Assembly: GCA_048498935.1 (NCBI GenBank)
Contig: JBEHXA010000001.1
Span: forward strand, 688-64,687
Reading direction: 5' to 3'
DNA: 64,000 nt
From: Myxococcota bacterium
GTDB taxonomy: Bacteria > Myxococcota_A > Polyangia > Polyangiales > Polyangiaceae
Shown: one piece after another, positions 9,017-53,269 of the stretch
How the letters are laid out: each line of letters begins with the position of its first letter
How positions within the stretch are numbered: position 1 is the first letter of the stretch
Notes under the pieces: generated by a model
The model's database searches: none
Seen by the model: only the letters and a program-made list of their open reading frames with translations
Told to the model about the DNA's origin: nothing
Position numbers and translations under genes: made by a program

Positions 9017-9619
9017 ATGGTTCAACCTGTCGGTAAAATGGCGCCGGGCGGTCGACCGGACGCGCACTGCGTGGCTGCTATAAATGTTAATAAAATCAAG
9101 AGCTTTAGCGCGGAGCTGCGGGCGCTGTTGGCCGCTCCGTTGGCCACCAAGCAGGGCGGGCTCGAGGTCCCCAGCGAGGCGTTTCGGCGCCCTCCAGCAG
9201 GGCGCGAAATCGGCCTGATGGAGGGCGATTCGCCGGGGCTTGCCCCCGTCGAGCCCCCGAGCGTGGGCCCACGCTGGGAAGCGGCGGAGTGGCTCAGCTG
9301 CTTCACCTCTGGGGGTGTTGAAGCGCCTACGGTGGCTCCGGCGCCCCCAGCTGCGCGGGGAGCTGAAGCGGAGGTTGGGCAGCTGCTAGAACGCTGGGTG
9401 CGGCGCGTGGGGCTAGGTGGTGATCAGCGTCGCGGGGTGGCGCGACTGGCCATCGGGGCAGGGCAACTGGCGGGGGCCGAGCTGGTCGTGGTGGCTGAGG
9501 GCTCTGCGGTCTCGGTAGAGCTTCAGCTGCCGAGCGATGTCCAGGGCTCGGGGCTCGAGCAGCGCCTGCGCAGCAGGCTCGAGCGCAAAGGGCTGCGGGC
9601 CGACGTGACCGTGCGGTGA
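9017..9619 (+). CDS. Hypothetical protein with FliK/YscP-like (T3S4) C-terminal domain
   Basis: ATG 9017 follows GAAAGG. Low-complexity N-terminus, then ARLAIGAGQLAGAELVVVAEGSAVSVEL...LEQRLRSRLERKGL, which resembles hook/needle length-control domains. Confidence 0.45.
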   Translation: MVQPVGKMAPGGRPDAHCVAAINVNKIKSFSAELRALLAAPLATKQGGLEVPSEAFRRPPAGREIGLMEGDSPGLAPVEPPSVGPRWEAAEWLSCFTSGGVEAPTVAPAPPAARGAEAEVGQLLERWVRRVGLGGDQRRGVARLAIGAGQLAGAELVVVAEGSAVSVELQLPSDVQGSGLEQRLRSRLERKGLRADVTVR

Positions 9620-40461: not shown

Positions 40462-41574
40462 TCACGGCCCGCAGTAGGGGCTGACTTCGATCCCGCCCAG
40501 CTGGTCGCCGTCCTCGAAGGGCTCGGCGGCCAGCAAGTAAGTCGTGCCCGCTTCGACCTCGAACTCCGTGCCGCCCTGGTGGCATTCCAAGACGTCACCC
40601 GTGCATGCGTCGAGGATCGCAAAGATCGGATGCGTGCCTTGATCCGAGATCCGCACGTTGAAGTGAACGCATCCAGTCGTAGTCGCCGTCCAGCGATAGA
40701 CGCGGTCCGCGCTCGTTCCTTCGGTGTTGCAGGGCAAAGTGACATCGTCACCGTCGTAGTCGACGTGTGAATCCCACGTCAGATCATCGGTGCCGAGGTC
40801 CTCGTCGTACGCGGGCGCCGAGCAGGCCTGCGCGCCAGCGCAAATCGGGGTTGAATCGTCGACCTCATCGTCGTCCAGCACGCTGTCTCCGGCGGTGCCG
40901 TCGCCCGCGCCGTCGTCGAGCCCCACCTCTACCAAGGTCCCGCCGTGCTCACAGGAGCCGCCGGGGGTTAGCGCCGTGAGCCTGATCAAGGAGCTGTAGC
41001 CATCCTGGCCGTCGTTACCGGGAATGCCTTGCGGTCCTTGACCGCCTTGCGGTCCGACATCGCCGCGCGGTCCAGCGCCACCTTGCGGCCCCGTGTCGCC
41101 CTTTGGACCCATATCGCCCTGCGCCCCGGTATCACCCTTGGAACCCATATCGCCCTGGGCACCCGTATCGCCCTTCGCCCCGGTATCACCCTTGGAACCC
41201 ATATCGCCTTGGGCACCGGTATCGCCCTTCGCCCCGGTATCGCCTTGCGCCCCGGTATCGCCTTGCGGCCCGGCTTCGCCTTGCGGCCCTACTTCGCCTT
41301 GTGGCCCCGCCTCGCCTTGTGCTCCGTCGACACCGTTACACAGCAACAAGGTCTCCTCGACTTCGACGTCGTCCAGCACGCCGTTGGCGTCGTCATCAAC
41401 GCCGAACCTCACCAGGTTGCCGCCTGCATCGCAGCCATCGCCCGGCGCTTCGTCCCGCACCGACACCAACACGCTCGCCGCGCCACTCGTCTCAGGGCTC
41501 GCCGTATCATCATCGGAGCACCCAACGATCGCGAGACCCACGAGCATAACCAACGCCGACCGGCAACCGAGCAT
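40462..41574 (-). CDS. Collagen triple-helix repeat lipoprotein flanked by two DUF7151-like acidic Cys-bounded domains
   Basis: IVGC lipobox; about 38 uninterrupted Gly-X-Y triplets; CDAGG..G.DDD.NG.LDD.EVE..C and CEHGG..G.DDG....LDDDEVD..C. Confidence 0.85.
   Translation of the reverse strand: MLGCRSALVMLVGLAIVGCSDDDTASPETSGAASVLVSVRDEAPGDGCDAGGNLVRFGVDDDANGVLDDVEVEETLLLCNGVDGAQGEAGPQGEVGPQGEAGPQGDTGAQGDTGAKGDTGAQGDMGSKGDTGAKGDTGAQGDMGSKGDTGAQGDMGPKGDTGPQGGAGPRGDVGPQGGQGPQGIPGNDGQDGYSSLIRLTALTPGGSCEHGGTLVEVGLDDGAGDGTAGDSVLDDDEVDDSTPICAGAQACSAPAYDEDLGTDDLTWDSHVDYDGDDVTLPCNTEGTSADRVYRWTATTTGCVHFNVRISDQGTHPIFAILDACTGDVLECHQGGTEFEVEAGTTYLLAAEPFEDGDQLGGIEVSPYCGP
40993..41334 (-). repeat. Coding 9-bp-unit tandem repeat (Gly-X-Y) with near-identical longer duplications
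   Basis: Repeated GCCCCGGTATCACCCTTGGAACCCATATCGCC units. Confidence 0.9.
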
Positions 41575-41885
41575 GGCAACCTCTTCCTTTGGAGTGAAGG
41601 CGCTATCCCAGGCGCCGACACGCCAGTACGGACGCCCCCGTTCAACCATAAGGGTTCCCCCTCGAAACGGCAGGCCGACCCGCCGCGAACCCCCGGCATC
41701 GATCTTGAACGAACGCCGTTCGCAGAGCCGCGCCTCCCGTGTCAGTCAGAGCCGTTCGAGCTCATTGCTTCGCGAAGCGCGCAGGCTCTGAAGAAGGAAA
41801 CGATGGCTCGCAACCTTATCAGTCGTCGGCGATGTCTGATGCTGCGGCGAATCTGCCTCCGCTCAAAGTCAGATTGCAGCATTTC

Positions 41886-42193
41886 AGGGGTCGACCCCCT
41901 CAAAACATGTGCGAAGTCGATCGCGAGGGGTTCGACCCCTGAAATGCGACTCGAATTCCAGTTTGCGATGGGGTCGACCGCTCGTTGGTGACGCTCAATT
42001 CCACAACCGAGCGGTTCGACCCCTCTCTTGGTGAAACCAATTCCAAAAAAAGAGGGGTTCGACCCCTCGAAATCTCTCCGCAAAGCAGCAAAGCAGGGGT
42101 CGACCCCCTCTCGGAGCGATTTTGAAGTCGCAAATCAGCGGTCGGACCCTCGCCGACGGCTCACCAGGTTTGCAAAACAGGGGTGGAACCGGT
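41886..42193. repeat. Non-coding array of eight 14-15-bp palindromes (consensus AGGGGT(T)CGACCCCT), period 40-43 bp, with non-identical spacers
   Basis: Copies start at 41886, 41926, 41969, 42010, 42053, 42095, 42137 and 42179; the last two are degenerate. Confidence 0.9.
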
Positions 42194-42467
42194 CGTAAGT
42201 CAGAAAGCCACGGACGGTCTGGTACTAGTCGCGTCAGCGGCCAGCACACGTGGCGACGGGACCCGTTCCGTCTGGGTGCCATGCCTCCCGCTTGAGCGCC
42301 CATGCCCAGTACGTGAGCGACTATCGGCTGAGCAGATCGATTTTCGAGAAATGACCAAGCGAGGACACGAAGGCTTGAGGGGAGGGACGCCCTCTTCTCC
42401 GGCACTCGTCGTGGGAAACGAGAACGACGACGCTTCTTCATCGATAGATGCGGCCGCCAGACCTTGG

Positions 42468-42713
42468 CTAGAAAGGGGCAAAGCGAGCGCGTGAAATGCG
42501 TCCGTCGCGTACTCCCAACCAAATATTGGCATTGCCCCCGCGGCTGTTGCAGTTGGTGCGTATTCGGACCAGCCAGAATCCTTGGTTAATGGCAATTGGC
42601 TCAACCCAGGGCCAGCCACGCGCATCGCACTCCCTGCGCGCCACCTGCAGTAACGCGGCCTCATCGAGCGAAGAAAGCCCCAAGACCGCTCGTAAAGCGC
42701 CCCAGAGTTTCAT
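42468..42713 (-). CDS. Candidate cognate immunity protein of the Rhs toxin (81 aa)
   Basis: ATGA overlap with the Rhs stop; one helix followed by beta strands (ECDARGWPWVEP...WLVRIRTN...ANIWLGVRDGRISRA). Confidence 0.7.
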   Translation of the reverse strand: MKLWGALRAVLGLSSLDEAALLQVARRECDARGWPWVEPIAINQGFWLVRIRTNCNSRGGNANIWLGVRDGRISRARFAPF

Positions 42714-45700
42714 TGGGTTGCTCCGACGTAGAGTGCGCCGCCTACGAAGCCGACGTACACCGTGCCCTCAATGGTAAAGCGCAGGGGCGTGACATATCCG
42801 TGAGTGAACGGAAAGGCAAGCCCCTGCGAAACGCTGCTCATGCCGTAGCCTTGCGCAATCATCTCTTCAACGCCAGCAAGGAGCGCTGAGTTGTTGTATC
42901 CCCAAGTTAGCAAGCGCGCACGTGCGGCCTGAAGTGGATTGGCTCCTGGCGACAGAAAAGCGTGAACGGACTCGTGGCGGAGGACCTGGTTCACTGTGTA
43001 GGGCGACTGCGCGATCTGCTCCAAGTCTAACGTAATCTGCCCGATCGGCGAGGTGCGGCCCAGCGTGCCCTGCGGCAGACGCGCGAACATGACCGCGCCG
43101 GGCTCTTCGAATGTCGTCAGAAGCGCGCCATACCCAATGCGCTGAACAATTGCGGTTGCCAATGGTTTTGCGACCAGGCCGCCTACGCCTCCGAGGGTTG
43201 CGCCGAAAATGATCGCATCCTCGCGCGTCTCCAAATTTGTGAAGGCGCGACCAACTTCAATGGCGCCTCCATCCCAAAGCAGCTGATACACGACATAACC
43301 AGTGCCAAGTACGGCGACCCCGGCAGCGACTCCGGCACAGCCCGGACCTGCGGCGACGCAGACGGCAGCAAGCTTGGTTAAGCCTGCGCCGGCGCCGACC
43401 GCGACCCCAGCCGAAATGCTGCCGAACAACAGTTTCTCGCCTGTGCTGGCAGCCGGGCCGCGCGGTGCCGCGCTGCTGGTGTACTTGCTCTCGGAATAGC
43501 CAGGCTCGTAAGGACCATACGTTGCCACGCCGGCACCTTCAAAGCCGCCGCCAACAGGTGTAGAACCGCCGAAGAAGCCACCCGAGCCGCAAGCAGAAAG
43601 CTCGTCACACGCCTGAAACCCCGTCGGGTCGGTGAAGCGCAGCGGATTGTTGCCTACGTAGGCTTTGAGGTTGAACGACTCGCTGCGGAGCGGCGAACCA
43701 GTGATCGGATCCGAAGATAGGAACTGTCCAACCTGAGGATCGTAGAAGCGCCCGCCCATGTCTACGAGACCATGTTCGGACTCTTGCCAATGGCCAGTGT
43801 AGCCGAGCCCCTTGATCGAGTTTCCACCAACCGTTGAGGCAGCGCCAAAATAGTCGAACTGGCGGCGCTCCACGACGCCTGCCGACTCGTTGGTGACCAG
43901 CTGCACGCTACCGAGATGGTCATCGTGAAAGTACTGCGTGCGCACCTGTTCTGGAGCACCTCCCGGTGGAACGTCGCGGACCACCTCGGCGACCGCGCGC
44001 TTTCCGTTTCCAATCAGATAGTGGTGTGTGGCGCTGCCATCGGAGGTGCTGGTCTCGCGATAATAGAGTTGGCCCCAATACACGGTGGTTGCATCGGGCG
44101 CCCGCTTAACGGTCTTGGTCGCGGTGGCGTCGTACTCGTAGGTCGTCGGCGCTTGAGGATCACTTCCCCAGACGCGTCGCGGCTTTTCGAAGTCTGTGTA
44201 TTCGATGTTGAGTTCTGGAAGAACTCCGACGCTGCGATGGCTCAGTGTGCCGTTTGGATTGTATTCAAAGCTTGAGGAGTCCTCTCCGTTATCAATCGTA
44301 TGCACGGAATGTGGTGCAGTTGAGTCGTAGTTGTACGTCCAGTTGTTGGCATTTACGTGTAGCGAACCGAACGCCGTGTAATCGAAGTCCGCCGTGATCT
44401 GGCTGCCTTCATGAACCTGATCGATGCGCCCGAAAGCGTCGTATTCGTAAGACTCGGCGTTGCCGTAAGAGTCGGACCTGCTCTCTAGGTTTCCGTCGGT
44501 GAAGAAGGTGTGATGGAGTTCCTGGATGGGGTCTTCGTTGGGTAGCCCGGTAGAGATGCCATCGGGAAGCCCTGTGTAAGGATGATAGGTGCGCGTCGTG
44601 GCGAGGCCGTTTCCGAAAGTCTCTACCGTTGGCTGTCCGAAGTCGTCGACTTGGTCCAGTTTCCAAAAGCTAGTCTGCGCTGGGGTCTCGCTGTCGGGAC
44701 CTGACCTGACCTGTTTGAGAATACCGCTGGATTCGTCGTAGACGTTCTCAATCTGGAAGGTGTCGCCTGGGTAGGTGACATAGCGCGGGCGTCCGTGTTC
44801 GTCCCTCTCATCGATCGAGACAACGTGGTCCTCACCGTCGAGCGTTTTGGTGAGCGATTTGACGCGGCCGAAGTCGTCATAGTCCACCGTCGTTGCGATG
44901 CCGTCGGTTGCGTTGAAGTCAAGGCGTTGAGGAAAGTCTTCACGCCAGACCCACGTATCCGAACGATTAGGTTCGTTGGGGGCGCGCGGGTCGACGATGC
45001 GAAAGTGCCTGCGACCAAGACGATCGTAGGTAAAGGTGACGGTCGCGTCAGCGTCGACCGTGCGCTGGAGCTCGCCGAACGGCGTGTAGAAATACGTCAT
45101 CGGATCCGAACCGATATTAGTTCGTGACGCCTGTCGCCCCAGGCGGTCCGATCGCATTTCGCTGACAATGGTCCCTTCGGGCATCCGGATGGCTTGCTCG
45201 AAGCGCGAGAACGGACCGTACTTGTACGCAATTCCCGCCCGTTGCGCAGTCTGGGTCGCCGCAAACTCCTCGGCGAAGCTGACACAGTCTTGTTCACCCA
45301 TCTTGATGGGGTCGCCAGCGAAGAGGATTCGTCCGTGGTAGTCCTTTTCGACGCACCGAGCGCTGTTGTCGGCACCGACGGTGCAGCTCGTTAACCCGAC
45401 GTAGCAGTGGGTGCTCTGCCCGCCGCCCGGTTCGGAGACGAAAGTCAGTCTGTTTTGATTGTCGTAGTCGTATTCTGTGTTGTTATCGACGTTGAACGAT
45501 TTCAGCCAACGCGACCTGGTGGCAACCGACCCTGTCGTGTCGTAGGTGGTGTAGGTCGCGTACGGTATTCCGCCGAAACCAGTGGCGGATTCTGACAGCT
45601 CTCGTCCTAGCTCGTCGTACCGGTGCTTGACGGTGGGGCCGCCGTCGAGCTCTGACACGACATCGAGGCCATTGCCTCCGGTCGAAGGATACGACGTGCG

Positions 45701-48700
45701 TGTCGTGTTGTTATCCGGTGCGATAGTGACGCGGGGCCGACCAAATCCATCATGGACCGCCTGCGTAGTGAGCGTTTTAGAGCCGGTCTTGCCGTGCTCG
45801 ATCGCCTTGGTGATGACGCCAAGACCATGACGGTATTCAGTTTCCTTGCTGTAGCCTTCGGCGTCTGTGATGAGGGCTGGGAAAACTTGCCTGGCCTCAT
45901 CGTAGACCACGGTGGTCGTGCGCTTCTTGTCCTCATCACAACTTGTGCTCCCTCCGCACGTCTCGATCAGCGTGACGTTTCCGTACTCATCGCGTCCCAG
46001 CCGCGTCGACAGCGTATAGGTGGCAGTGTCTGGCTCGATTGTCGTGCGTTCGAGGAGCCCGTTGTCGTAGTACTCGAAAGCGGTTGTTCGCGAAAAGCCA
46101 GCCTGGTGGGACTCACCCGCGATGCCGGACGATGTAACTACTCTTCGCTCGGGTAAGCGGACGAGCCACGCTTCGACGAACTCGGGCCGACTCTCGTATG
46201 CGAAGATTACGTTGAGTTTCTCCTGCTCGTTGCGGCCTCCTCCACTCCAATCAGAGACGACGGACTTCTGGTTGCCGTAGTCGTCGATCTCGATCGTGTG
46301 ATCGACGCGGCCAAGCAGTGTGGATATGCCATCGCGCGTTTCGAATTTGGTCTCTGTTACGATATGCTCGTAAGGCAGCAGCACCCGCGGTGAGTCTGCG
46401 CTTGGCTTGACAGCCCACTGCGCGAATCGCCGCGTGAGGATGCTTCCTTGTTCAGTGGCGGAAAGATCGATGCGCGAGTACTCGCGCCCGGCAAACGGGA
46501 ATGCGCCCGTGTTGGCATCGCGTGTCACGTTGTCGAGATGTGAAACAATCGTGGTGCCGCGATCTAGCTCGGACGCCGCGTGGAAGGAGAATCCGAGGTT
46601 TCCGCGGCCGTTGAGGCCGATCTTTTCTCCGCTGTAGCTGTGCGTGAATTCTCGAATGAATCCAGTGAGATAGCTGGGGCCTTGAAACTCCCGATGACGG
46701 GCCACCAGAGAATGCCGAGGTGTCCTGCAGCGCAAACCGTTGGTGTAGGTGCAGTTTGCGTCAACCGAATTGCTGTAGACGTTCTCGGTAAAGAAGGAGG
46801 CGAGGGGATCGCTGGCAGCCGGTGGATGGTCCGGCACGGATGCGTTCGCGTAGTCGACCTCTATTCGCCCATCCAGGCCATTGGTGACGGCGGTGAGCTT
46901 TGCCACCTGAGGACCTCGACGGATATAGGCGGCCAAGTTGGCCGGTGCAAAACCGCCTGCAGGTTTTTGGACGAAGTCCTTGACGCCGTCGCCGTTGACG
47001 TCCATCGCCAATCCGCGTCCAGCCAAGACCATGCCTACGAAGGTGGTGGGCGGTGCATTGCCGGCAGGGAAATCCCGAACGCGCCAGCCAGAGAAAGTTC
47101 CCCCCAAGGCAGCGTCGGGATTTTCGACTCGTGACTGGAGCCAGCGCCAATTCGCTTCACCAGGACCGGCGATCATGACGTCATCGCGCCCATCGCCATC
47201 GATGTCCACGACTGGTCCGAGAATGTACTGATAGCCTCCCGCGGTTAGGAGGCGCCTGGGCTTGCCATCGACGACAGGCTGGCCGTCAAAAAGGTTGCTC
47301 TCTTCTCGGCAATCAAACGGGTCTTCGGCATCACCCGTACCGAGGCATGTTGAGAGATGGCCGGCATTGTCGTGCGTGACAATATCTGTGAAGCCATCGC
47401 CATTGGCGTCGAGTGGGGTCCCTGACTCGCCGCGCGCTACTGAGACAGGAACGTGAGTCTGGACGACATCGGTGCCGACAGGTCCTTCTTCTCCGTATTC
47501 CGCGTCATCGAAGGTGATGGACAGATAGTCTTCAATGTCCTGAAACTGCTGATTATGATGGTGATACGCATAATTCTGAATCAATAGCGCCTGTTTTCCG
47601 CTTCCGTCGACGTCGGCGGCTATGTAGTGCATGAAGCAAAAGCCGTTGAAATCGATCGGGCGTTCTGTCAGGTCGGGCAAGTGGACGAGCGTCCACGTCC
47701 AGGGCCCCTCATGGACATAGTAACCTCCTTCGTGCCCACCGGTGCATTTGATGATGTCTTTAACGCCATCGCCATCGGCGTCCAGGATGTAGCTGCGGTG
47801 AATGGGGATCTCGAGGCCGATTGGAGAGGTCGGCGAGGGGACGCCGAGATCGAGAACCTTCAGCTTCGAGTCCTTGTAGGTGAGGACCTGATAGTTGCCC
47901 GCCGTGGTAGCCCCTTCCATGAGGAGGTCGTCGAGCCCGTCATTGTCGTAGTCGACGACGTTGTAGATCTCAGGGGCGTTGTAAACCTTGGGTATGAAGA
48001 AATCGGCGGGAGTCTCGGGTACTACTCGATCTCGGCCCGACATCAGCACCTCGAGGTGCTTGCGCCAGCCGTTTACATTCCCATCCGAAGGCCGTCCGTC
48101 CAGAACGACCATCAAGAGGTCGTCGACTCCGTCTCCGTTCAAATCCGCGGGCATGTCGGGGACTACATCGAATTGCGCACTTTCGGGGTCATTGGGGTGA
48201 AACCCGATGGGCACTCCTTGTGACAATGCGGGGACTTCGTTTTGGTACGAGAAGGATGTGGCTGGCTTGCAGACCATGTCGCTGAAGTTGGTCAATCCTT
48301 CCAGCGCCGGCACACATTCGCTGATTTGAGTCAACCAGCTTGGTCCAGAGTACGCGATCTCGTGGTCCATTCTGTATTCGCGAACGATCGTCGAACCAAC
48401 GGACGTGCGAATCCGTTTTAGAATGCGATCATTTCTAAATAAGACACCGCTGCGGTACCCATCGGTGATGTCGTTGCGTCGCTCGTATTCGAACTCGATC
48501 CGGCTGTCGGGCTCAGTTCCGTCAGTATGCCCTGCGTACCAAATGTTTTTGGGCTGGATGAGCGCGCTCTCCTTCGTGGCAAAGCTCTTTCCGCGAACCT
48601 CGTACTCGATCGTCATGTAGTTGCCGGCGCGGTCCTCGACACGTGTGGCGACCCACAGATCGTTGTGAAAGTTGCTGATGCCGGGTTCTATGAAAGTGAC

Positions 48701-51700
48701 CACGCGGCCGTCGGGATAGAAGGCCCGGTACCCCTTCGACAACCTTTGGTCGATGGTAACGACTTTGGTTCCATCGTTGATTTCGGTCTGGTACTCCGAT
48801 TCAGGTGCGTCGATATCGCTGATGCGAATTAGCCTCGCGCCATCGAGGCAGAGCCTGTCCGACTGCGCAGGACCAACGGCTTTCCCGTCTTGGGAAATCG
48901 TTGCCGGGCAGCTGGTGATCCGCGGGAGACCCGTCAAGGACCAGCCCTGGCCGAGGTCTCCGTTGCCGTTCGCGCTATTGTAGTAGAGACTCAGTCGAGG
49001 TTGCATCTCGCCACGACCTGGCGGCACCAGGAGCGGAATGGTGTACGTCGCCTGTCCGTTGTGAGTGACGGCGAATGTGCCGTCGATTGTTCCGGAGCGT
49101 TGTGTGGCGTAGTCGGAGGAAGGGATGCCCGGAGGGGGAGATGACGCGAGTTGGAAATTTCCGATACAGCGTTGCTCGGGGCCTTCGAATTCGTCCGGAA
49201 GGCAGGTTCCGCAGCTCCCATGGCAGCCGTCGTCGCCGTAGTCCTTCCCGGCGCAGTCGGGTTCACAGGCTTCGCAGAGTCCGCAGGCAGACGTCGTCGT
49301 GCCGCAAGGCACGTCCTGGGGGGCGAGCGCGTCGCAGATACGCTGCCGGCAAGCACGGTTCACACCGGTAAGGCCGAAGAGCGGACCGGCGCCCTCGCGG
49401 CAAACAAGTCCGGGGGCGCACTCGCCGTCCTTGTGGCACTCGCCTTCGCGCTCGTTGCAAAGCACGCAGGTGCCGCCGCACCCGTCATCCGAATTGTCTC
49501 CGCAGACTTTCCCGGCGCAGCTAGGCTCACAGTTCGGGAGGGGGTTCTGAGCAAAGCAGAGACCGCAGGGGCTGTCGATTGAGCCGCACCAGGTTCCGAT
49601 AGACCCCAGATCACATCCACCTGCCCAGCAGTATCGGCCGGGCGGCTTGCCAAAAGCCCACCCGCTATCGCTTGGACACACTAGCCCCGCTCGACATGAG
49701 CCATCGGTGCAGGGGTCGCCGACCTCGTCGTCTCCTGCACACACGCCAGCCTGACAAGTTTGGGTAGGAGAACACACATTGGCATTCGCACAGGTCTGCC
49801 CCTCCGACCGACACTTCCCGTCCGCCGCGCAGTACTCTCCTGGCGCGCAATCGGCGAACGTGCTGCAGGTTGAATTGGGGGGCGCCAACTCCTTGGGTAT
49901 CAACAACCCCTCTGGCCCCTGATACAAATAAGGCGGTACGTTGAGCAGCACGCGTTCGCCGACGGTGCCGGCGGCGCCGTCGTTGAAGTACCAGAGCTCG
50001 TCGGTGGGGGCGCCGGAGGGGATGGGGATGATGAAGTGATCCCAGAGGCCGGAGAGGCCGCCGTTGGCGATGTCGTGGGGATTGGTGCAGGCGTGGCCGA
50101 CGGCGTAGTCGGAGAGGTAGCGGGCGGGCTCGGTGACCCAGGCGGTGCCGGCCGCGTTCTTCTTGTTGCGGAAGAAGGTGCCGTCGGATTGGGACCAGCC
50201 GACGACTCGCGTGGTGCCGGCTGGCACGAAGAAGTAGGCCTGCCAGCGGTAGTTGAGGGCGAGCGGTTGGTCTTTGCGTCCTACCGGAATGGCTAGAGCC
50301 GTTCCATCCGGCACGTTGGCGTACATGCGACTGCCGGAATCGTCCAGGTCGAGGCGGTAGACCGCGTTCGGTAGAGCGTTGTCGAAGACCCAATCGGTCT
50401 CGGTTTCGGGTACGGCGTCCGACAAGAAGCGATACTCGAGGCCGACGTTCGGTGTGCTCGGCAGCGAGAGCCGCCCGGCGAGGATTTCTCCCGGAGCGTA
50501 TTTGATGACGTGCGCGGTCAGCGGGCCCGCGGAGCTCGGGCGTTGGAAGAAGAAGTAGTGCGGTTGCCGGGTGTAGATGCTTTGGAGTCGCTTCGGCAGT
50601 GTGGGCGTGAGCTGGTACGGCACCAAGTCCCGCGAGAAGTCCTTGATGAGCGTTGGATCGACGCCCGTGTCGAGGATGGGTACGTTGGCGGCGCCAGCCG
50701 TGACGTAGCCGTAGATCTCCTCGGGTGAGGGGCTGGTGCCGGTCTTCATGGGGTTGCAGCCGGCAGGCGGCGTGGCGCCTGAGCACGTGCCGCACGTGGC
50801 CGTCGCGGTCGCGGACGGGCACGTGGGGTTCCAGACCGGCATGTCGCAAGCGGGGCCGCTAGTGGGCTCGACGGTGCCCGTGCAGTTCGGCACGCCTTGG
50901 ACAATTTCTGTGATGGCGTCGTACGACTCGAGGATGCGGCGGTCGCGCGTTGCGTAGGTGAACCGCAGGAGGTCCCTGAGTTGGCTCTGCTCGCTATTGG
51001 GGCTTTGCGCGTCGCAGCGATTCCAGAACTTGCGGCTGAGCTCGAGGTAGCGCGTGTAGACGGCGAGATCGTCGAGGCGCAAGCGGATGCGCTGGTTGAC
51101 GGTAGTGTTCTCCGTCGTGGCCTCGTAGGCCTTCTTGAGGGCGCGGTACATCACGCCGACCATGTTGTCGCTCCACAGCGCTCGGTCTTCGGTCACCTCA
51201 TAAAACTTGTTCATGTCGCCCGCGGCCGACCCGAACGCTTTGGTCAGGAAGTCGCTGCGATAGGTGGCTGCGTTGACTGCGCTGGGAGTATCCAGATCCC
51301 AGAGCGCGTTCGATAGAGCCCACCAGGCCGGTCCGGACGCGCCGAACCCCCAGTTCACGTTGAGCTCGTAGCGACGCACGCCGAGGTCGTAGAAGGTTCG
51401 AATGCGATCAACGATGGACTGCGTCGAGATTTGAGCTTGGCCCGGGAACTCGTTGGCACTGCCAGAGATGGCATCCGTGATGCCCGCCTCGAAGCCTGCG
51501 CTGCCCCAGCCGCGCACCCGGTTCTCGAGCGCGAACGGGATCGGCGCCACGTACGTGGTGTGGACGTTGACGATGGCGTTCTGCCTGAGCGCGATCGTCG
51601 GTGCATCCGCAGAGTCGTAGAGGAAGTCCGCAACGACGACTTTCGTCGGTTGCGCTTCAGCGGCAGCGTTCAGGATGGCCGCAACTCGGTTGGAGATGTT

Positions 51701-53269
51701 GCGGAACGTCGGGTCGTTGACGTCGTTGCAGTTCAGGCCAGTTCCGCTGCTGTCGGGCACCGAAACCCAAGTGACGTTGGCCGTCGGCGAAAGCGAGAGC
51801 CTGGTCGCGGCGTTCTGCTCACTTGCCCACCTGTTGACTATCTTTTGGACCGTCCAGTCCTCACCGGCCGCGTTGGCAACGCCAGTCAGGCAGAGTTGTC
51901 GATTTCCGGGGCTGGTACCGGGGTTGGTGGAGAGCGCCGGCGGGAACGTGACGCCATACTTGTTCTGCCACCACGTCACGACCTGGGCGTAGCTGCCGCC
52001 CAGAGCCAGAGCCGTGGATGTGTACAGGCGGTTGTGCTTGCGCCAGGCGTCGAAGTAGCTGTTGCTGACGGTGGTGAAGCCGGCTTCCCAGGAGTCGCCT
52101 GGGAAATTCAGGGTGCGCGACGGGACGGCGGGCTTCTCGTCGACGGCCAGCGAGAGCGGCTGCTGAAGGGTCGCAGGCTCCGGAAACACTTCCCAAGTAG
52201 GGCTCGGAAAGTAGTGGCGATACCCGATGCGGGCGAGCAGATCCGAGACCGCGTCTTGCAGGGCGTCGACGGTGGCGCCGGCCACGATGACACGGTTCGA
52301 GTTTTGAGGCGTGTGGAGTACGTATTGTTCCGCCAGCTGGAGGCGTTGAGGGCGAAGCACGCCACCTGCCAACGTATCGTTCGGGCGGAAATAACCTTGG
52401 TATGGCCAGCCGGTGTTCGGAAAGTCACCGTCGATGCCGAGCGAAATGCCTGAAGGCGTATTGGTCGCAGCGGCCACGCTGAACTGTGTGCCAGTCAGGC
52501 CCTTGATCTTGTTGAGCTTGTCGCGCAGGTCGTTCGCGATCGCGACGATCTTGTTCTGTAGGTTCTGGTCGGTATGGGGAGCGATGACGATCGACAGAAC
52601 CGCATCGTTAGAGGAGACGAGCGTGACCGGGCCCGGAGTGGGGGGTGTGCACGGCGCACACGAGCCGCCGCAATCGACGGCCGTCTCGTTCCCATCCTTC
52701 ACGCCGTTCTGGCAGGTGGAAGCCCAGCAGACATCGGTGCCGGCGGGGAGGTGGAACGCGGGGCCGTTGCCGTTGCCGCAAACGAGACCGGGCTGGCATT
52801 CCTGGACGCTGTCGCAGTCGCCTTCGCCGGCGCTGCAGGGGCAGTCCGTGCTGCAGTGCGAGGTGCTGCCGTTCGAGGTGTCGCAGGTAACGGTGCAGTC
52901 TGAGCCGCAGGGACCGCCGCAGTCGATTGAGGATTCGCCCCCGTTCTTGCTTCCGTCGCTACAAGTGCTCGGAGCGCAGGCGCCTCCGCTGAAAGGGCCG
53001 CGCTTGGCGAGGTTGCCTGCAACGCAGGTGTAACCTGAAGCGCACTGAGAAGAGTCGGTGCAGGGGCCTTCACCGAGCCCGCAGAGGTGCGAGTTACTCG
53101 CGCCGCAGTAATCGGGGTCTCCGACGGCCGCACCGGGCGTCCCCTTCATCGCGCTTTGATGAATCGCCCCGAGCTCCTCGCCGCCACCACCGTCGACCTG
53201 CGAAGAGTCGCTGCACGCGAGCAAAATGACACTCGCCCAAGCCGCCCAAGTCCATGCGCCCCAGTTCAT
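42710..53269 (-). CDS. Giant Rhs/YD-repeat polymorphic toxin: lipoprotein signal, Cys-rich repeats, DUF4838-like module, SpvB, FG-GAP repeats, YD shell, Rhs core, C-terminal HExxH zincin
   Basis: ILLAC19; GQATYTIPLLVPPGRGEMQPRLSLYYNS..GNG.LGQGWSL; DLNGDG/DVNGDG repeats; YD repeats; GYTGH...MGGRFYDP..GQFLSSDP...N..AYVGNNP.RFTDPTG; LRHESVH...EEMIA. Confidence 0.92.
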   Translation of the reverse strand: MNWGAWTWAAWASVILLACSDSSQVDGGGGEELGAIHQSAMKGTPGAAVGDPDYCGASNSHLCGLGEGPCTDSSQCASGYTCVAGNLAKRGPFSGGACAPSTCSDGSKNGGESSIDCGGPCGSDCTVTCDTSNGSTSHCSTDCPCSAGEGDCDSVQECQPGLVCGNGNGPAFHLPAGTDVCWASTCQNGVKDGNETAVDCGGSCAPCTPPTPGPVTLVSSNDAVLSIVIAPHTDQNLQNKIVAIANDLRDKLNKIKGLTGTQFSVAAATNTPSGISLGIDGDFPNTGWPYQGYFRPNDTLAGGVLRPQRLQLAEQYVLHTPQNSNRVIVAGATVDALQDAVSDLLARIGYRHYFPSPTWEVFPEPATLQQPLSLAVDEKPAVPSRTLNFPGDSWEAGFTTVSNSYFDAWRKHNRLYTSTALALGGSYAQVVTWWQNKYGVTFPPALSTNPGTSPGNRQLCLTGVANAAGEDWTVQKIVNRWASEQNAATRLSLSPTANVTWVSVPDSSGTGLNCNDVNDPTFRNISNRVAAILNAAAEAQPTKVVVADFLYDSADAPTIALRQNAIVNVHTTYVAPIPFALENRVRGWGSAGFEAGITDAISGSANEFPGQAQISTQSIVDRIRTFYDLGVRRYELNVNWGFGASGPAWWALSNALWDLDTPSAVNAATYRSDFLTKAFGSAAGDMNKFYEVTEDRALWSDNMVGVMYRALKKAYEATTENTTVNQRIRLRLDDLAVYTRYLELSRKFWNRCDAQSPNSEQSQLRDLLRFTYATRDRRILESYDAITEIVQGVPNCTGTVEPTSGPACDMPVWNPTCPSATATATCGTCSGATPPAGCNPMKTGTSPSPEEIYGYVTAGAANVPILDTGVDPTLIKDFSRDLVPYQLTPTLPKRLQSIYTRQPHYFFFQRPSSAGPLTAHVIKYAPGEILAGRLSLPSTPNVGLEYRFLSDAVPETETDWVFDNALPNAVYRLDLDDSGSRMYANVPDGTALAIPVGRKDQPLALNYRWQAYFFVPAGTTRVVGWSQSDGTFFRNKKNAAGTAWVTEPARYLSDYAVGHACTNPHDIANGGLSGLWDHFIIPIPSGAPTDELWYFNDGAAGTVGERVLLNVPPYLYQGPEGLLIPKELAPPNSTCSTFADCAPGEYCAADGKCRSEGQTCANANVCSPTQTCQAGVCAGDDEVGDPCTDGSCRAGLVCPSDSGWAFGKPPGRYCWAGGCDLGSIGTWCGSIDSPCGLCFAQNPLPNCEPSCAGKVCGDNSDDGCGGTCVLCNEREGECHKDGECAPGLVCREGAGPLFGLTGVNRACRQRICDALAPQDVPCGTTTSACGLCEACEPDCAGKDYGDDGCHGSCGTCLPDEFEGPEQRCIGNFQLASSPPPGIPSSDYATQRSGTIDGTFAVTHNGQATYTIPLLVPPGRGEMQPRLSLYYNSANGNGDLGQGWSLTGLPRITSCPATISQDGKAVGPAQSDRLCLDGARLIRISDIDAPESEYQTEINDGTKVVTIDQRLSKGYRAFYPDGRVVTFIEPGISNFHNDLWVATRVEDRAGNYMTIEYEVRGKSFATKESALIQPKNIWYAGHTDGTEPDSRIEFEYERRNDITDGYRSGVLFRNDRILKRIRTSVGSTIVREYRMDHEIAYSGPSWLTQISECVPALEGLTNFSDMVCKPATSFSYQNEVPALSQGVPIGFHPNDPESAQFDVVPDMPADLNGDGVDDLLMVVLDGRPSDGNVNGWRKHLEVLMSGRDRVVPETPADFFIPKVYNAPEIYNVVDYDNDGLDDLLMEGATTAGNYQVLTYKDSKLKVLDLGVPSPTSPIGLEIPIHRSYILDADGDGVKDIIKCTGGHEGGYYVHEGPWTWTLVHLPDLTERPIDFNGFCFMHYIAADVDGSGKQALLIQNYAYHHHNQQFQDIEDYLSITFDDAEYGEEGPVGTDVVQTHVPVSVARGESGTPLDANGDGFTDIVTHDNAGHLSTCLGTGDAEDPFDCREESNLFDGQPVVDGKPRRLLTAGGYQYILGPVVDIDGDGRDDVMIAGPGEANWRWLQSRVENPDAALGGTFSGWRVRDFPAGNAPPTTFVGMVLAGRGLAMDVNGDGVKDFVQKPAGGFAPANLAAYIRRGPQVAKLTAVTNGLDGRIEVDYANASVPDHPPAASDPLASFFTENVYSNSVDANCTYTNGLRCRTPRHSLVARHREFQGPSYLTGFIREFTHSYSGEKIGLNGRGNLGFSFHAASELDRGTTIVSHLDNVTRDANTGAFPFAGREYSRIDLSATEQGSILTRRFAQWAVKPSADSPRVLLPYEHIVTETKFETRDGISTLLGRVDHTIEIDDYGNQKSVVSDWSGGGRNEQEKLNVIFAYESRPEFVEAWLVRLPERRVVTSSGIAGESHQAGFSRTTAFEYYDNGLLERTTIEPDTATYTLSTRLGRDEYGNVTLIETCGGSTSCDEDKKRTTTVVYDEARQVFPALITDAEGYSKETEYRHGLGVITKAIEHGKTGSKTLTTQAVHDGFGRPRVTIAPDNNTTRTSYPSTGGNGLDVVSELDGGPTVKHRYDELGRELSESATGFGGIPYATYTTYDTTGSVATRSRWLKSFNVDNNTEYDYDNQNRLTFVSEPGGGQSTHCYVGLTSCTVGADNSARCVEKDYHGRILFAGDPIKMGEQDCVSFAEEFAATQTAQRAGIAYKYGPFSRFEQAIRMPEGTIVSEMRSDRLGRQASRTNIGSDPMTYFYTPFGELQRTVDADATVTFTYDRLGRRHFRIVDPRAPNEPNRSDTWVWREDFPQRLDFNATDGIATTVDYDDFGRVKSLTKTLDGEDHVVSIDERDEHGRPRYVTYPGDTFQIENVYDESSGILKQVRSGPDSETPAQTSFWKLDQVDDFGQPTVETFGNGLATTRTYHPYTGLPDGISTGLPNEDPIQELHHTFFTDGNLESRSDSYGNAESYEYDAFGRIDQVHEGSQITADFDYTAFGSLHVNANNWTYNYDSTAPHSVHTIDNGEDSSSFEYNPNGTLSHRSVGVLPELNIEYTDFEKPRRVWGSDPQAPTTYEYDATATKTVKRAPDATTVYWGQLYYRETSTSDGSATHHYLIGNGKRAVAEVVRDVPPGGAPEQVRTQYFHDDHLGSVQLVTNESAGVVERRQFDYFGAASTVGGNSIKGLGYTGHWQESEHGLVDMGGRFYDPQVGQFLSSDPITGSPLRSESFNLKAYVGNNPLRFTDPTGFQACDELSACGSGGFFGGSTPVGGGFEGAGVATYGPYEPGYSESKYTSSAAPRGPAASTGEKLLFGSISAGVAVGAGAGLTKLAAVCVAAGPGCAGVAAGVAVLGTGYVVYQLLWDGGAIEVGRAFTNLETREDAIIFGATLGGVGGLVAKPLATAIVQRIGYGALLTTFEEPGAVMFARLPQGTLGRTSPIGQITLDLEQIAQSPYTVNQVLRHESVHAFLSPGANPLQAARARLLTWGYNNSALLAGVEEMIAQGYGMSSVSQGLAFPFTHGYVTPLRFTIEGTVYVGFVGGALYVGATQ

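Follow-up and report, generated by a model that had tools for sequence, protein, structure and literature searches.

An array of palindromes at 42-bp phase beside an Rhs locus in a Myxococcota genome, a probable orphan copy of a protein-binding platform linked to a HerA/FtsK-type ATPase module

The F-plasmid sopC system is a type Ia ParABS system that consists of SopA, SopB and the site sopC. In type II and type III partition loci, the repeat array doubles as the control region of the operon; the iterons are 11-12 bp long and one helical turn apart, the NTPases are actin-like or tubulin-like, and the DNA binders are of the RHH or wHTH kind. Motors of the HerA/FtsK superfamily are known from repair, conjugation, packaging and defence, and the plasmid and transfer biology of myxobacteria is poorly known. 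The site sopC is composed of 12 direct 43-bp repeats, each with a 16-bp inverted repeat to which SopB, a centromere-binding protein, attaches as a dimer (PMC3177203). Streptomyces TraB is an FtsK-like conjugative dsDNA translocase, clt is its cis-acting locus of transfer, and the 8-bp repeats of clt are recognised by the cognate TraB (PMC4447253). TdtA of Thermus is a HerA-like donor ATPase (PMC5365140).

The array described here lies on contig C1 of a Myxococcota genome (a 7.65-Mb draft in 868 contigs), within a stretch of 64,000 nucleotides that was analysed as a whole and that we call the window. An earlier note on this DNA had pointed to eight short palindromes next to an Rhs locus, and the coordinates bear this out. 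The eight units share the core GGGGT(T)CGACCCC, and the strict form GGGGT(N)CGACCCC has 6 matches in the window as against 0.02 expected from dinucleotide shuffles. The features of the locus are the following.

40462..41649, minus strand: left neighbour, gene for a collagen-repeat/DUF7151 protein (Pfam), outside the module.
41858..42196, no strand: whole array element, homologous to the copies on C242, C312 and C464/C507 (blastn/MAFFT).
41858..41885, no strand: short conserved left flank (..AAGTCAGATTGCAGCA..), from the alignment of copies.
41887..41898, no strand: unit 1, perfect palindrome GGGGTCGACCCC.
41927..41939, plus strand: unit 2, GGGGTTCGACCCC.
41970..41981, no strand: unit 3, GGGGTCGACCGC.
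42011..42023, plus strand: unit 4, GCGGTTCGACCCC.
42054..42066, plus strand: unit 5, GGGGTTCGACCCC.
42096..42107, no strand: unit 6, perfect palindrome GGGGTCGACCCC.
42138..42149, no strand: unit 7, degenerate variant GCGGTCGGACCC (AGCGGTCGGACCGCT type in other copies).
42180..42191, no strand: unit 8, degenerate GGGGTGGAACCG, with the phase kept.
42468..42713, minus strand: right neighbour, small ORF 3' of the Rhs gene, candidate immunity gene (ORF list).
42710..53269, minus strand: giant Rhs/SpvB/FG-GAP gene (Pfam), with its 3' end toward the array.

Measured from centre to centre, the units are spaced at 41, 43, 41, 43, 42, 42 and 42 bp. These are the spacings of the earlier note except for the first, which had been given as 40 bp and depends on how a unit is defined. 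Degeneracy does increase toward the right end, as had been described, with units 7 and 8 both degenerate. The spacers, which had been called non-identical, are indeed unlike one another within the array, yet they are conserved across the four genomic copies described below. Because the inter-core sequences differ, Tandem Repeats Finder reports the window array only as a 43-bp period in units 3-5. The GC content of the array region is about 56%, as against 66% for the genome.

The array sits between the 3' end of the small ORF and Rhs gene on one side and the 5' end of the collagen-repeat/DUF7151 gene on the other. The neighbouring gene had been taken for an Rhs-type gene, and Pfam confirms this, with SpvB, FG-GAP and RHS repeat matches in a product of 3519 aa. 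The collagen-repeat/DUF7151 gene is transcribed away from unit 1 and holds the position that is occupied on contig C464 by the gene for a helical protein, P0001. It starts about 240 bp from the array, in the same geometry as P0001 on C464, and an effect of the array on this collagen-like gene is therefore conceivable from the arrangement of the sequence. No tRNA adjoins the array in scans of the window and of the four further array contigs; a 78-bp multi-copy element that adjoins the C312 copy is not a tRNA.

The array of about 340 bp, "spacers" included, is a dispersed repeat with at least four copies of 89-91% identity over 280-300 bp, a number that is a lower bound in a draft assembly. The copies at C242:10044-10400 and C312:6085-6415 are 89% and 91% identical to the window array, respectively, with blastn/MAFFT alignments at C242:10044-10339 and C312:6085-6365. 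At the start of contig C464 there is a left array end, in reverse orientation, and at the start of contig C507 a right one; these contig-end pieces may be the two ends of a single copy that broke the assembly. Over the 56 bp assembled, the C464 array is 88% identical to that of the window, and C242 and C464 are 97% identical over 115 bp. A blastn search of the genome with the array returned nothing beyond C1, C242, C312, C464 and C507. The contexts of the copies differ, with the Rhs locus on C1, an IS3 transposase on C242, an alpha/beta hydrolase and an antitoxin on C312 and a 1152-aa AAA_16 protein on C507. Genome-wide, the strict core is matched 27 times (17 forward and 10 reverse), at about 17 distinct sites, about 13 of which are inside the four to five arrays. 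A genome-wide scan for a lag of 42 mostly picked up 14-aa coding repeats. Neither the array nor its two-unit pattern was found in the 46 other species of the genus searched or in 400 genomes sampled across the phylum, although one genome had a different, 44-bp array; hhalign of the P0001 family against the DUF6261-like family found beside 44-bp arrays gave no similarity.

The regular repeat-spacer look and the hairpin-forming repeats would suit processed small RNAs or CRISPR-like guides acting in trans. However, the spacers are conserved among the four copies rather than unique, and a CRISPR-like or guide-RNA reading therefore fails; the CRISPR-like candidate was rejected on this ground. Where a CRISPR has near-identical repeats of 23-55 bp and unique spacers, the window array has a conserved core of 12-15 bp, and its period is 42 bp, not 60-72 bp. 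An Rfam scan with permissive filters gave sub-threshold chance matches only, and Pfam and PADLOC showed no cas-like gene among the neighbours of any copy. In addition, the related arrays described next lie upstream of protein genes and have cores in both orientations. We give this explanation next to no credence.

The earlier note had seen no relevant gene nearby. This holds for the window, where tblastn finds neither a P0001-family gene nor the ATPase gene that accompanies it, but the cognate genes adjoin a sister copy on another contig. On C464, the unit-1 side of the array is about 210 bp upstream of the gene for P0001 (305 aa), which is followed by the gene for a 509-aa ATPase. We define the module as at least six short palindromes with a centre spacing of 41-43 bp in a non-coding stretch, located about 150-700 bp upstream of a P0001-family gene and then an ATPase gene. 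The window array has the palindromes at this spacing and is homologous to an operon-linked array; the adjacent operon is present at the C464 sister copy and not here. As the module genes are absent from the window, its array is filed as an orphan and not as a complete module.

The link between array and operon recurs in this genome and beyond it. A P0001 paralogue on C136 (44% identity) is followed by an ATPase 78% identical to that of C464, and a second paralogue, on C628, is truncated. Both are preceded by arrays with a 40-42-bp phase and a different palindrome, GGGCTAGCTAGCCC, and further arrays with this core are found at the ends of C225 and C493. Public data hold about 100 P0001 homologues, none of them named and many on contigs of 1-3 kb. 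At six of seven homologue loci from metagenomes a 42-bp array precedes the gene, with a core of its own in each case.

L183/L184: core GGGCTAGGAAGCCC, four units inverted and four forward, with 86 bp between the halves.
L181: core GGGCTAGGAAGCCC, 42-bp array upstream.
L185: core GGGTATCGGATACCC, 42-bp array upstream.
L186: core GGGGGTCGACCCCC, identical to that of the window array.
L188: GGTCACC-type unit, 42-bp array upstream.
L187: GAGCGCTC-type unit, beside a homologue only 30% identical to P0001.

At the seventh locus, L180, no array was seen and the ATPase gene is fragmentary. The ATPase gene follows the homologue in L183, L185, L186 and L188. A scan of metagenomes for the pattern also led to a distant homologue, P0002 on L151, with an array directly downstream of its gene. 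Of the spacings in 13 arrays, 49 lie between 40 and 43 bp (mean 41.7, sd 0.94); the 10 that remain, at 84-86 or 124 bp, are twice or three times the period, so that the phase is kept across degenerate units.

Within the genus, 24 of 47 genomes carry one to six P0001 homologues. Among the 24 homologue upstream regions of sufficient length, the best k-mer lag was 41-43 bp or a multiple of it in 16, and such a lag appeared in 47 of 3000 random 750-bp windows of this genome (1.6%); the other 8 of the 24 loci gave no 42-bp signal in what is a crude test of k-mer periodicity. These tallies include an unpublished genome, G046, on which no conclusion depends: without it, 0 of 45 congeners have the array, 23 of 46 genomes have a homologue and 16 of 23 upstream regions have the signal. 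The congener cores (for example GGCAGCTAGCTGCC, GGCTGCCGGCAGCC, GAGCAGCTAGCTGCTC, GCTTGCCGGCAAGC, GACGGTNCGACCGTC and CAGGTCACCTG) are perfect inverted repeats of 12-16 bp, many without a central loop, as would suit DNA-binding proteins that act as dimers. Cores are largely confined to the arrays: the genomes G008 and G052 have theirs solely in the operon-linked array, whereas the congener G053, besides two operon-linked arrays, has at least one orphan (C15:39292-39554), and its core recurs twice in isolation. In all, at least ten different palindromes are found on one 42-bp frame.

These properties bear directly on the suggestion, also made in the earlier note, that the array is a REP/BIME cluster left by a RAYT. 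Such a structured repeat would act at the level of RNA or DNA structure, as a terminator, an mRNA stabiliser or a gyrase/IHF site, and would have spread by a RAYT or by recombination, with adjacent units pairing as REPIN-like hairpins. The array is extragenic, and on C1, C312 and C507 it is found 3' of minus-strand genes. Its fold pairs units 1-2, 3-4 and 5-6 (z=-7.2; both strands z about -7), and units 3/4 and 4/5 have complementary non-consensus halves, the right half of unit 3 matching the left half of unit 4 in the RNA fold. Read on the minus strand, unit 5 resembles a terminator, with a hairpin and a T7 run behind it (42068 down to about 42042), and may mark the end of Rhs/immunity gene transcription. 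The pairing of flanks between neighbouring units was rightly noticed in the window copy. In the other copies, however, the flanks of units 1 and 2 do not pair in this way, with AAAAC in their flank instead of ATTTC, and as this helix is not kept elsewhere it is unsupported by covariation, among only three to four similar copies. Moreover, a low folding energy is given by any array of palindromes. The genome does encode two Y1_Tnp-like proteins, on C168 and C586, which are weak PF01797 (RAYT-like) matches of 24 bits, but the repeats beside their genes are unrelated tandem ones of 18 bp and 7 bp, not this palindrome. The GTAG/GTGG head is absent, the units being preceded by CA/GA and GGGG, often as GCAAANCA. 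A REP family is normally shared among species or replaced by hundreds of copies, whereas this array was not found in the 46 congeners searched and forms about four arrays with almost no solitary units. Instead of hundreds of RAYT-tied clusters there are about 17 strict core sites, with the RAYT-like genes unlinked to them, so that an ordinary REP family does not account for the array. Nor do REPs have a strict 42-bp phase or a link to a specific operon with locus-specific cores. We hold both the structural role and this mode of spread to be quite improbable.

A further possibility is that the array is an iteron or origin array of an integrated replicon, or an array of terminal binding sites as in Tn7- or Mu-like transposon ends. 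Phased repeated sites, AT-richer spacers, accessory or mobile genes in the surroundings (the IS3 transposase at C242, toxin-antitoxin genes, Rhs) and the patchy, multi-copy distribution of the module would all suit such an origin. However, Rep, DnaA boxes, an integrase or a DDE transposase are not consistently adjacent; the conserved partners are the helical protein and the HerA-type ATPase. Neither terminal inverted repeats nor target duplications were found at the copies, there is no second inverted end, and the left boundaries are nested, with about 95 bp shared by C464 and C242, about 70 bp by C312 and about 25 bp by the window copy. We consider an explanation of this kind very unlikely.

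P0001 is an all-alpha protein of about 300 aa that matches no family in Pfam, NCBIfam, PADLOC or PHROGs. Its AF2 model (pLDDT 86) consists of long helices over residues 2-235 followed by a disordered tail, and the alignment of the helical proteins shows a nearly invariant C-terminal Pro-Phe motif. Foldseek of the model against the PDB returned nothing with E<0.1; with Pfam blank as well, the protein has no recognisable DNA-binding (HTH/RHH) fold. In the ESM Atlas the family falls within Myxococcota and is likewise unnamed. The module ATPase is a protein of about 480-510 aa in the HerA/FtsK superfamily. That of C464 matches HerA_C, DUF87 and, weakly, TrwB_AAD_bind in Pfam, and by sequence it aligns with HerA (7f6d/8wiv) and YjgR (11kk) in the PDB, all of them partial matches. 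To the NCBIfam models for TraB, TraD and CedB it is similar in the Walker A region only, far below their cut-offs (22 bits against a cut-off of 800 for TraB). Its AF2 model has a pLDDT of 48 and is too poor to draw on.

Given that arrays of the same phase recur upstream of this operon, we consider it likely, on the layout of the sequence, that the window array is an orphan copy of a dsDNA protein-binding platform with helical phasing, of the class that forms the conserved cis-element of a so far uncharacterised two-gene module in Myxococcota-type genomes. Of the three hypotheses offered earlier, the phased protein-binding or bending site is the one favoured by the comparison of loci, whereas the REP/RAYT cluster and the small-RNA array are not supported. 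From locus to locus no base of the unit is constant, yet the frame of about 42 bp persists, and this speaks for selection acting on length and hence on helical phase (4 x 10.5 bp). Since 42 bp is about four helical turns, the palindromes are all on one face of the DNA. At L183 the units occur in both orientations and the 86-bp gap is in phase, and duplex DNA therefore fits better than RNA.

Whereas the arrays with their phase, their linkage to the operon, their varied cores and the orphans are observations, protein binding to the arrays, the identity of the binder and the role of the resulting complex are inferences. As the palindrome is particular to each module, its reader is most likely encoded there too. 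Between modules with unrelated cores the ATPases are 73-81% identical and the helical proteins 41-59%; so well conserved an ATPase would be a general-purpose motor, and the helical protein is then the sole reader candidate encoded in the module. By this comparison of sequences, the fast-evolving helical protein is a better candidate reader than the highly conserved ATPase. However, the identity of the helical proteins does not track that of the cores, and the reader could therefore be a host factor.

In the mechanism that we propose for the layout of 6-12 palindromes 42 bp apart, the helical protein gene and the HerA/FtsK-superfamily ATPase gene, a protein encoded in the module, probably the helical one, would sit as a dimer on each palindrome along one face of the duplex and build a higher-order complex over about 250-500 bp. 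This helical-protein complex would then recruit the ring ATPase as a generic motor. The arrays of the window, C242 and C312 have the sites without the genes, and would be bound in trans by the C464-encoded protein and serve as extra docking sites. The role of the complex might be segregation in the manner of sopC/SopB, loading of a dsDNA translocase in the manner of TraB/clt or TdtA, or autoregulation and control of neighbouring genes. More tentatively, the arrays, the P0001-family protein and the ATPase might constitute a class of DNA-handling machine in Myxococcota, for segregation or for dsDNA translocation or loading, that has so far gone undescribed; no published description of such a module was found in the literature searched. 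In such a machine the helical protein would polymerise along one face of the array with a repeat of about 14 nm, the ring ATPase would be recruited through the C-terminal Pro-Phe tail, and specificity would diversify fast, as in plasmid incompatibility groups. Orphan arrays would then be added chromosomal sites for loading or anchoring in regions of accessory genes.

The window copy itself may nevertheless be a functionless relic, namely a decaying leftover of a duplicated or rearranged module region in which the operon was lost or never copied. This is suggested by the lack of module genes nearby together with the two degenerate distal units, 7 and 8. The nested left boundaries of the four copies, which are not sharp, fit such a history, as does the failure to find an empty site or conserved synteny in the 46 congeners, where the flanks of the C312 copy are nowhere adjacent and the insertion boundaries are thus undefined. 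In addition, substitutions among the copies amount to 11% in cores and 18% in spacers, so that the cores are not significantly better conserved (p=0.13). On the other hand, six of the eight cores are perfect or have at most two mismatches, all units are in phase, and the identity of 89-91% over 280-300 bp is retained by copies in unrelated contexts. Orphans also recur in G053, and the cognate protein, if made from C464, would still bind the sites of the window. We therefore regard a relic as unlikely, and prefer the reading of the array as an orphan copy of a binding platform.

Should the arrays be docking platforms, a DNA target open to testing would be at hand for about 100 "hypothetical" proteins and for a conserved branch of the HerA/FtsK ATPases, and the ten or more palindromes on the same 42-bp frame would offer natural swaps of specificity. 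A HerA/FtsK motor brought to a sopC-like array by a novel adaptor distinct from it would be coupled to specific DNA in a new manner, and the module may shed light on the upkeep or movement of accessory regions or mobile elements in myxobacteria. There is also a practical side, in that arrays of this kind break short-read assemblies, as the many homologues on 1-3-kb contigs indicate, and 42-bp arrays can be mistaken for CRISPR or REP arrays.

How the module relates to known systems depends on whether layout or proteins are compared. Clusters of the REP/BIME type are similar in being extragenic groups of GC-rich palindromes about 40 bp apart whose neighbours can pair, but they number tens to hundreds as against about four arrays here, where no cognate RAYT was found and where a strict phase, an operon link and locus-specific cores set the arrays apart. 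The parC-ParR-ParM and tubC-TubR-TubZ loci have the same order, with a phased array upstream, then a small DNA-organising protein and then an NTPase, although none of their proteins is present here. In protein logic, the closest system is TraB-clt, which likewise combines a hexameric FtsK/HerA-superfamily motor with an array of short repeats that differs between related elements. However, TraB reads direct 8-bp repeats through its own C-terminal domain, whereas the sites here are palindromes 42 bp apart; with palindromes instead of direct 8-mers and a TraB match confined to the Walker A region, the module falls outside TraB-clt, whose defining proteins are absent here, as are those of sopC. 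Unlike in TraB, a separate reader is implied here because the ATPase hardly varies between modules of different specificity. The known object most similar in layout is sopC. The arrays here have 6-12 units of 42 bp, each with an inverted repeat of 12-16 bp, the eight units of the window being 41-43 bp apart with palindromes of 12-13 bp and the sister arrays having palindromes of 14-16 bp. An NTPase operon is adjacent, and specificity differs between related modules, as it does between incompatibility groups. In contrast to sopC, the arrays lie upstream and not downstream, orphan arrays are scattered in the genome, ParA and ParB/SopB domains are absent among the neighbours of all array copies and module loci, and a novel all-alpha protein and a HerA/FtsK-type ATPase take their place as partners. 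By analogy with these systems, the array may be classed as a phased binding-site array tied to an NTPase module.

Metagenomic loci carrying the module, which joins the 42-bp palindrome array to genes for a P0001-family helical protein and a HerA/FtsK-type ATPase, have neighbours of defence or addiction type (weak PycTM, Hypoth_Ymh, ParE toxin):

L183/L184 1503-2234 and 9292-10089; L186 706-1249, defence/addiction-type genes

The orphan arrays of the draft genome, which lack module genes beside them, likewise lie among such genes (Rhs, antitoxin, AAA_16), and the module may be part of variable or defence islands. Orphan arrays are not unique to this genome, because the congener G053 has, besides two operon-linked arrays, the following, orphan or at a contig end, built on its own core CTTGCCGGCAAG with 42/84-bp spacing:

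C15:39292-39554
C58:181-361

Ahead of P0001-family genes, a conserved CCGA(C/T) motif lies about 55-60 nt before the ATG. At roughly 35 nt before the ATG there is a short hairpin-like element whose stem varies and whose loop is rich in A/T (e.g. GACGG-AATTTC-CCGTC). Together they could constitute a promoter, operator or 5'-UTR element of the module. Upstream stretches with both:

L183 4931-5003; L181 4931-5003; L186 2931-3003
L185 1321-1393; L188 2931-3003; L009 168-240; L178 449-521

Tandem arrays with a 44-bp period (39 bp in one) and the core GGGG(G)T(T/C)CGACCCC(C) were found at other loci, their unit sequence outside the core being unrelated to that of the window array:

Sorangium: L040 1990-2220; L065 5197-5341; L094 4860-5178
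genome G186: C18:151891-152035; C30:28851-29039
further loci: L062; L054; metagenome L149-L163

Four arrays of this type (L040, L065, L161, L165) adjoin a different helical protein family of about 300 aa, with weak DUF6261 similarity, and no profile similarity was detected between this family and the P0001 family.

Other repeats occur in the draft genome. Those of 18, 36 and 54 bp in the window are Gly-X-Y coding repeats and have no relation to the palindrome array:

41026-41319, tandem repeats within a collagen-like gene

Immediately to the right of the C312 array, at the 3' terminus of a minus-strand ORF encoding 323 aa, lies a stretch of about 78 bp (L008 6499-6576) that contains the palindrome TCAGGGA-NN-TCCCTGA and has matches of up to 94% identity at many loci across many genomes of the genus; a tRNA identity was ruled out.

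Two Y1_Tnp (RAYT/IS200-like) genes of 255-259 aa are present, one on C168 and one on C586, the former having on its flanks a 7-bp GACGAAC repeat and about nine tandem copies of an 18-bp unit:

C168:8500-8670 and 9520-9570; C586

Copies of the 12-bp palindrome TACGTGCACGTA number 55 and are spread over many contigs, often paired at a distance of 68-77 bp (e.g. C123:12975/13042, C165:56/132/209). They form a dispersed repeat family separate from the 42-bp array, one that is a stronger candidate for a REP family than the GGGGT(T)CGACCCC array.
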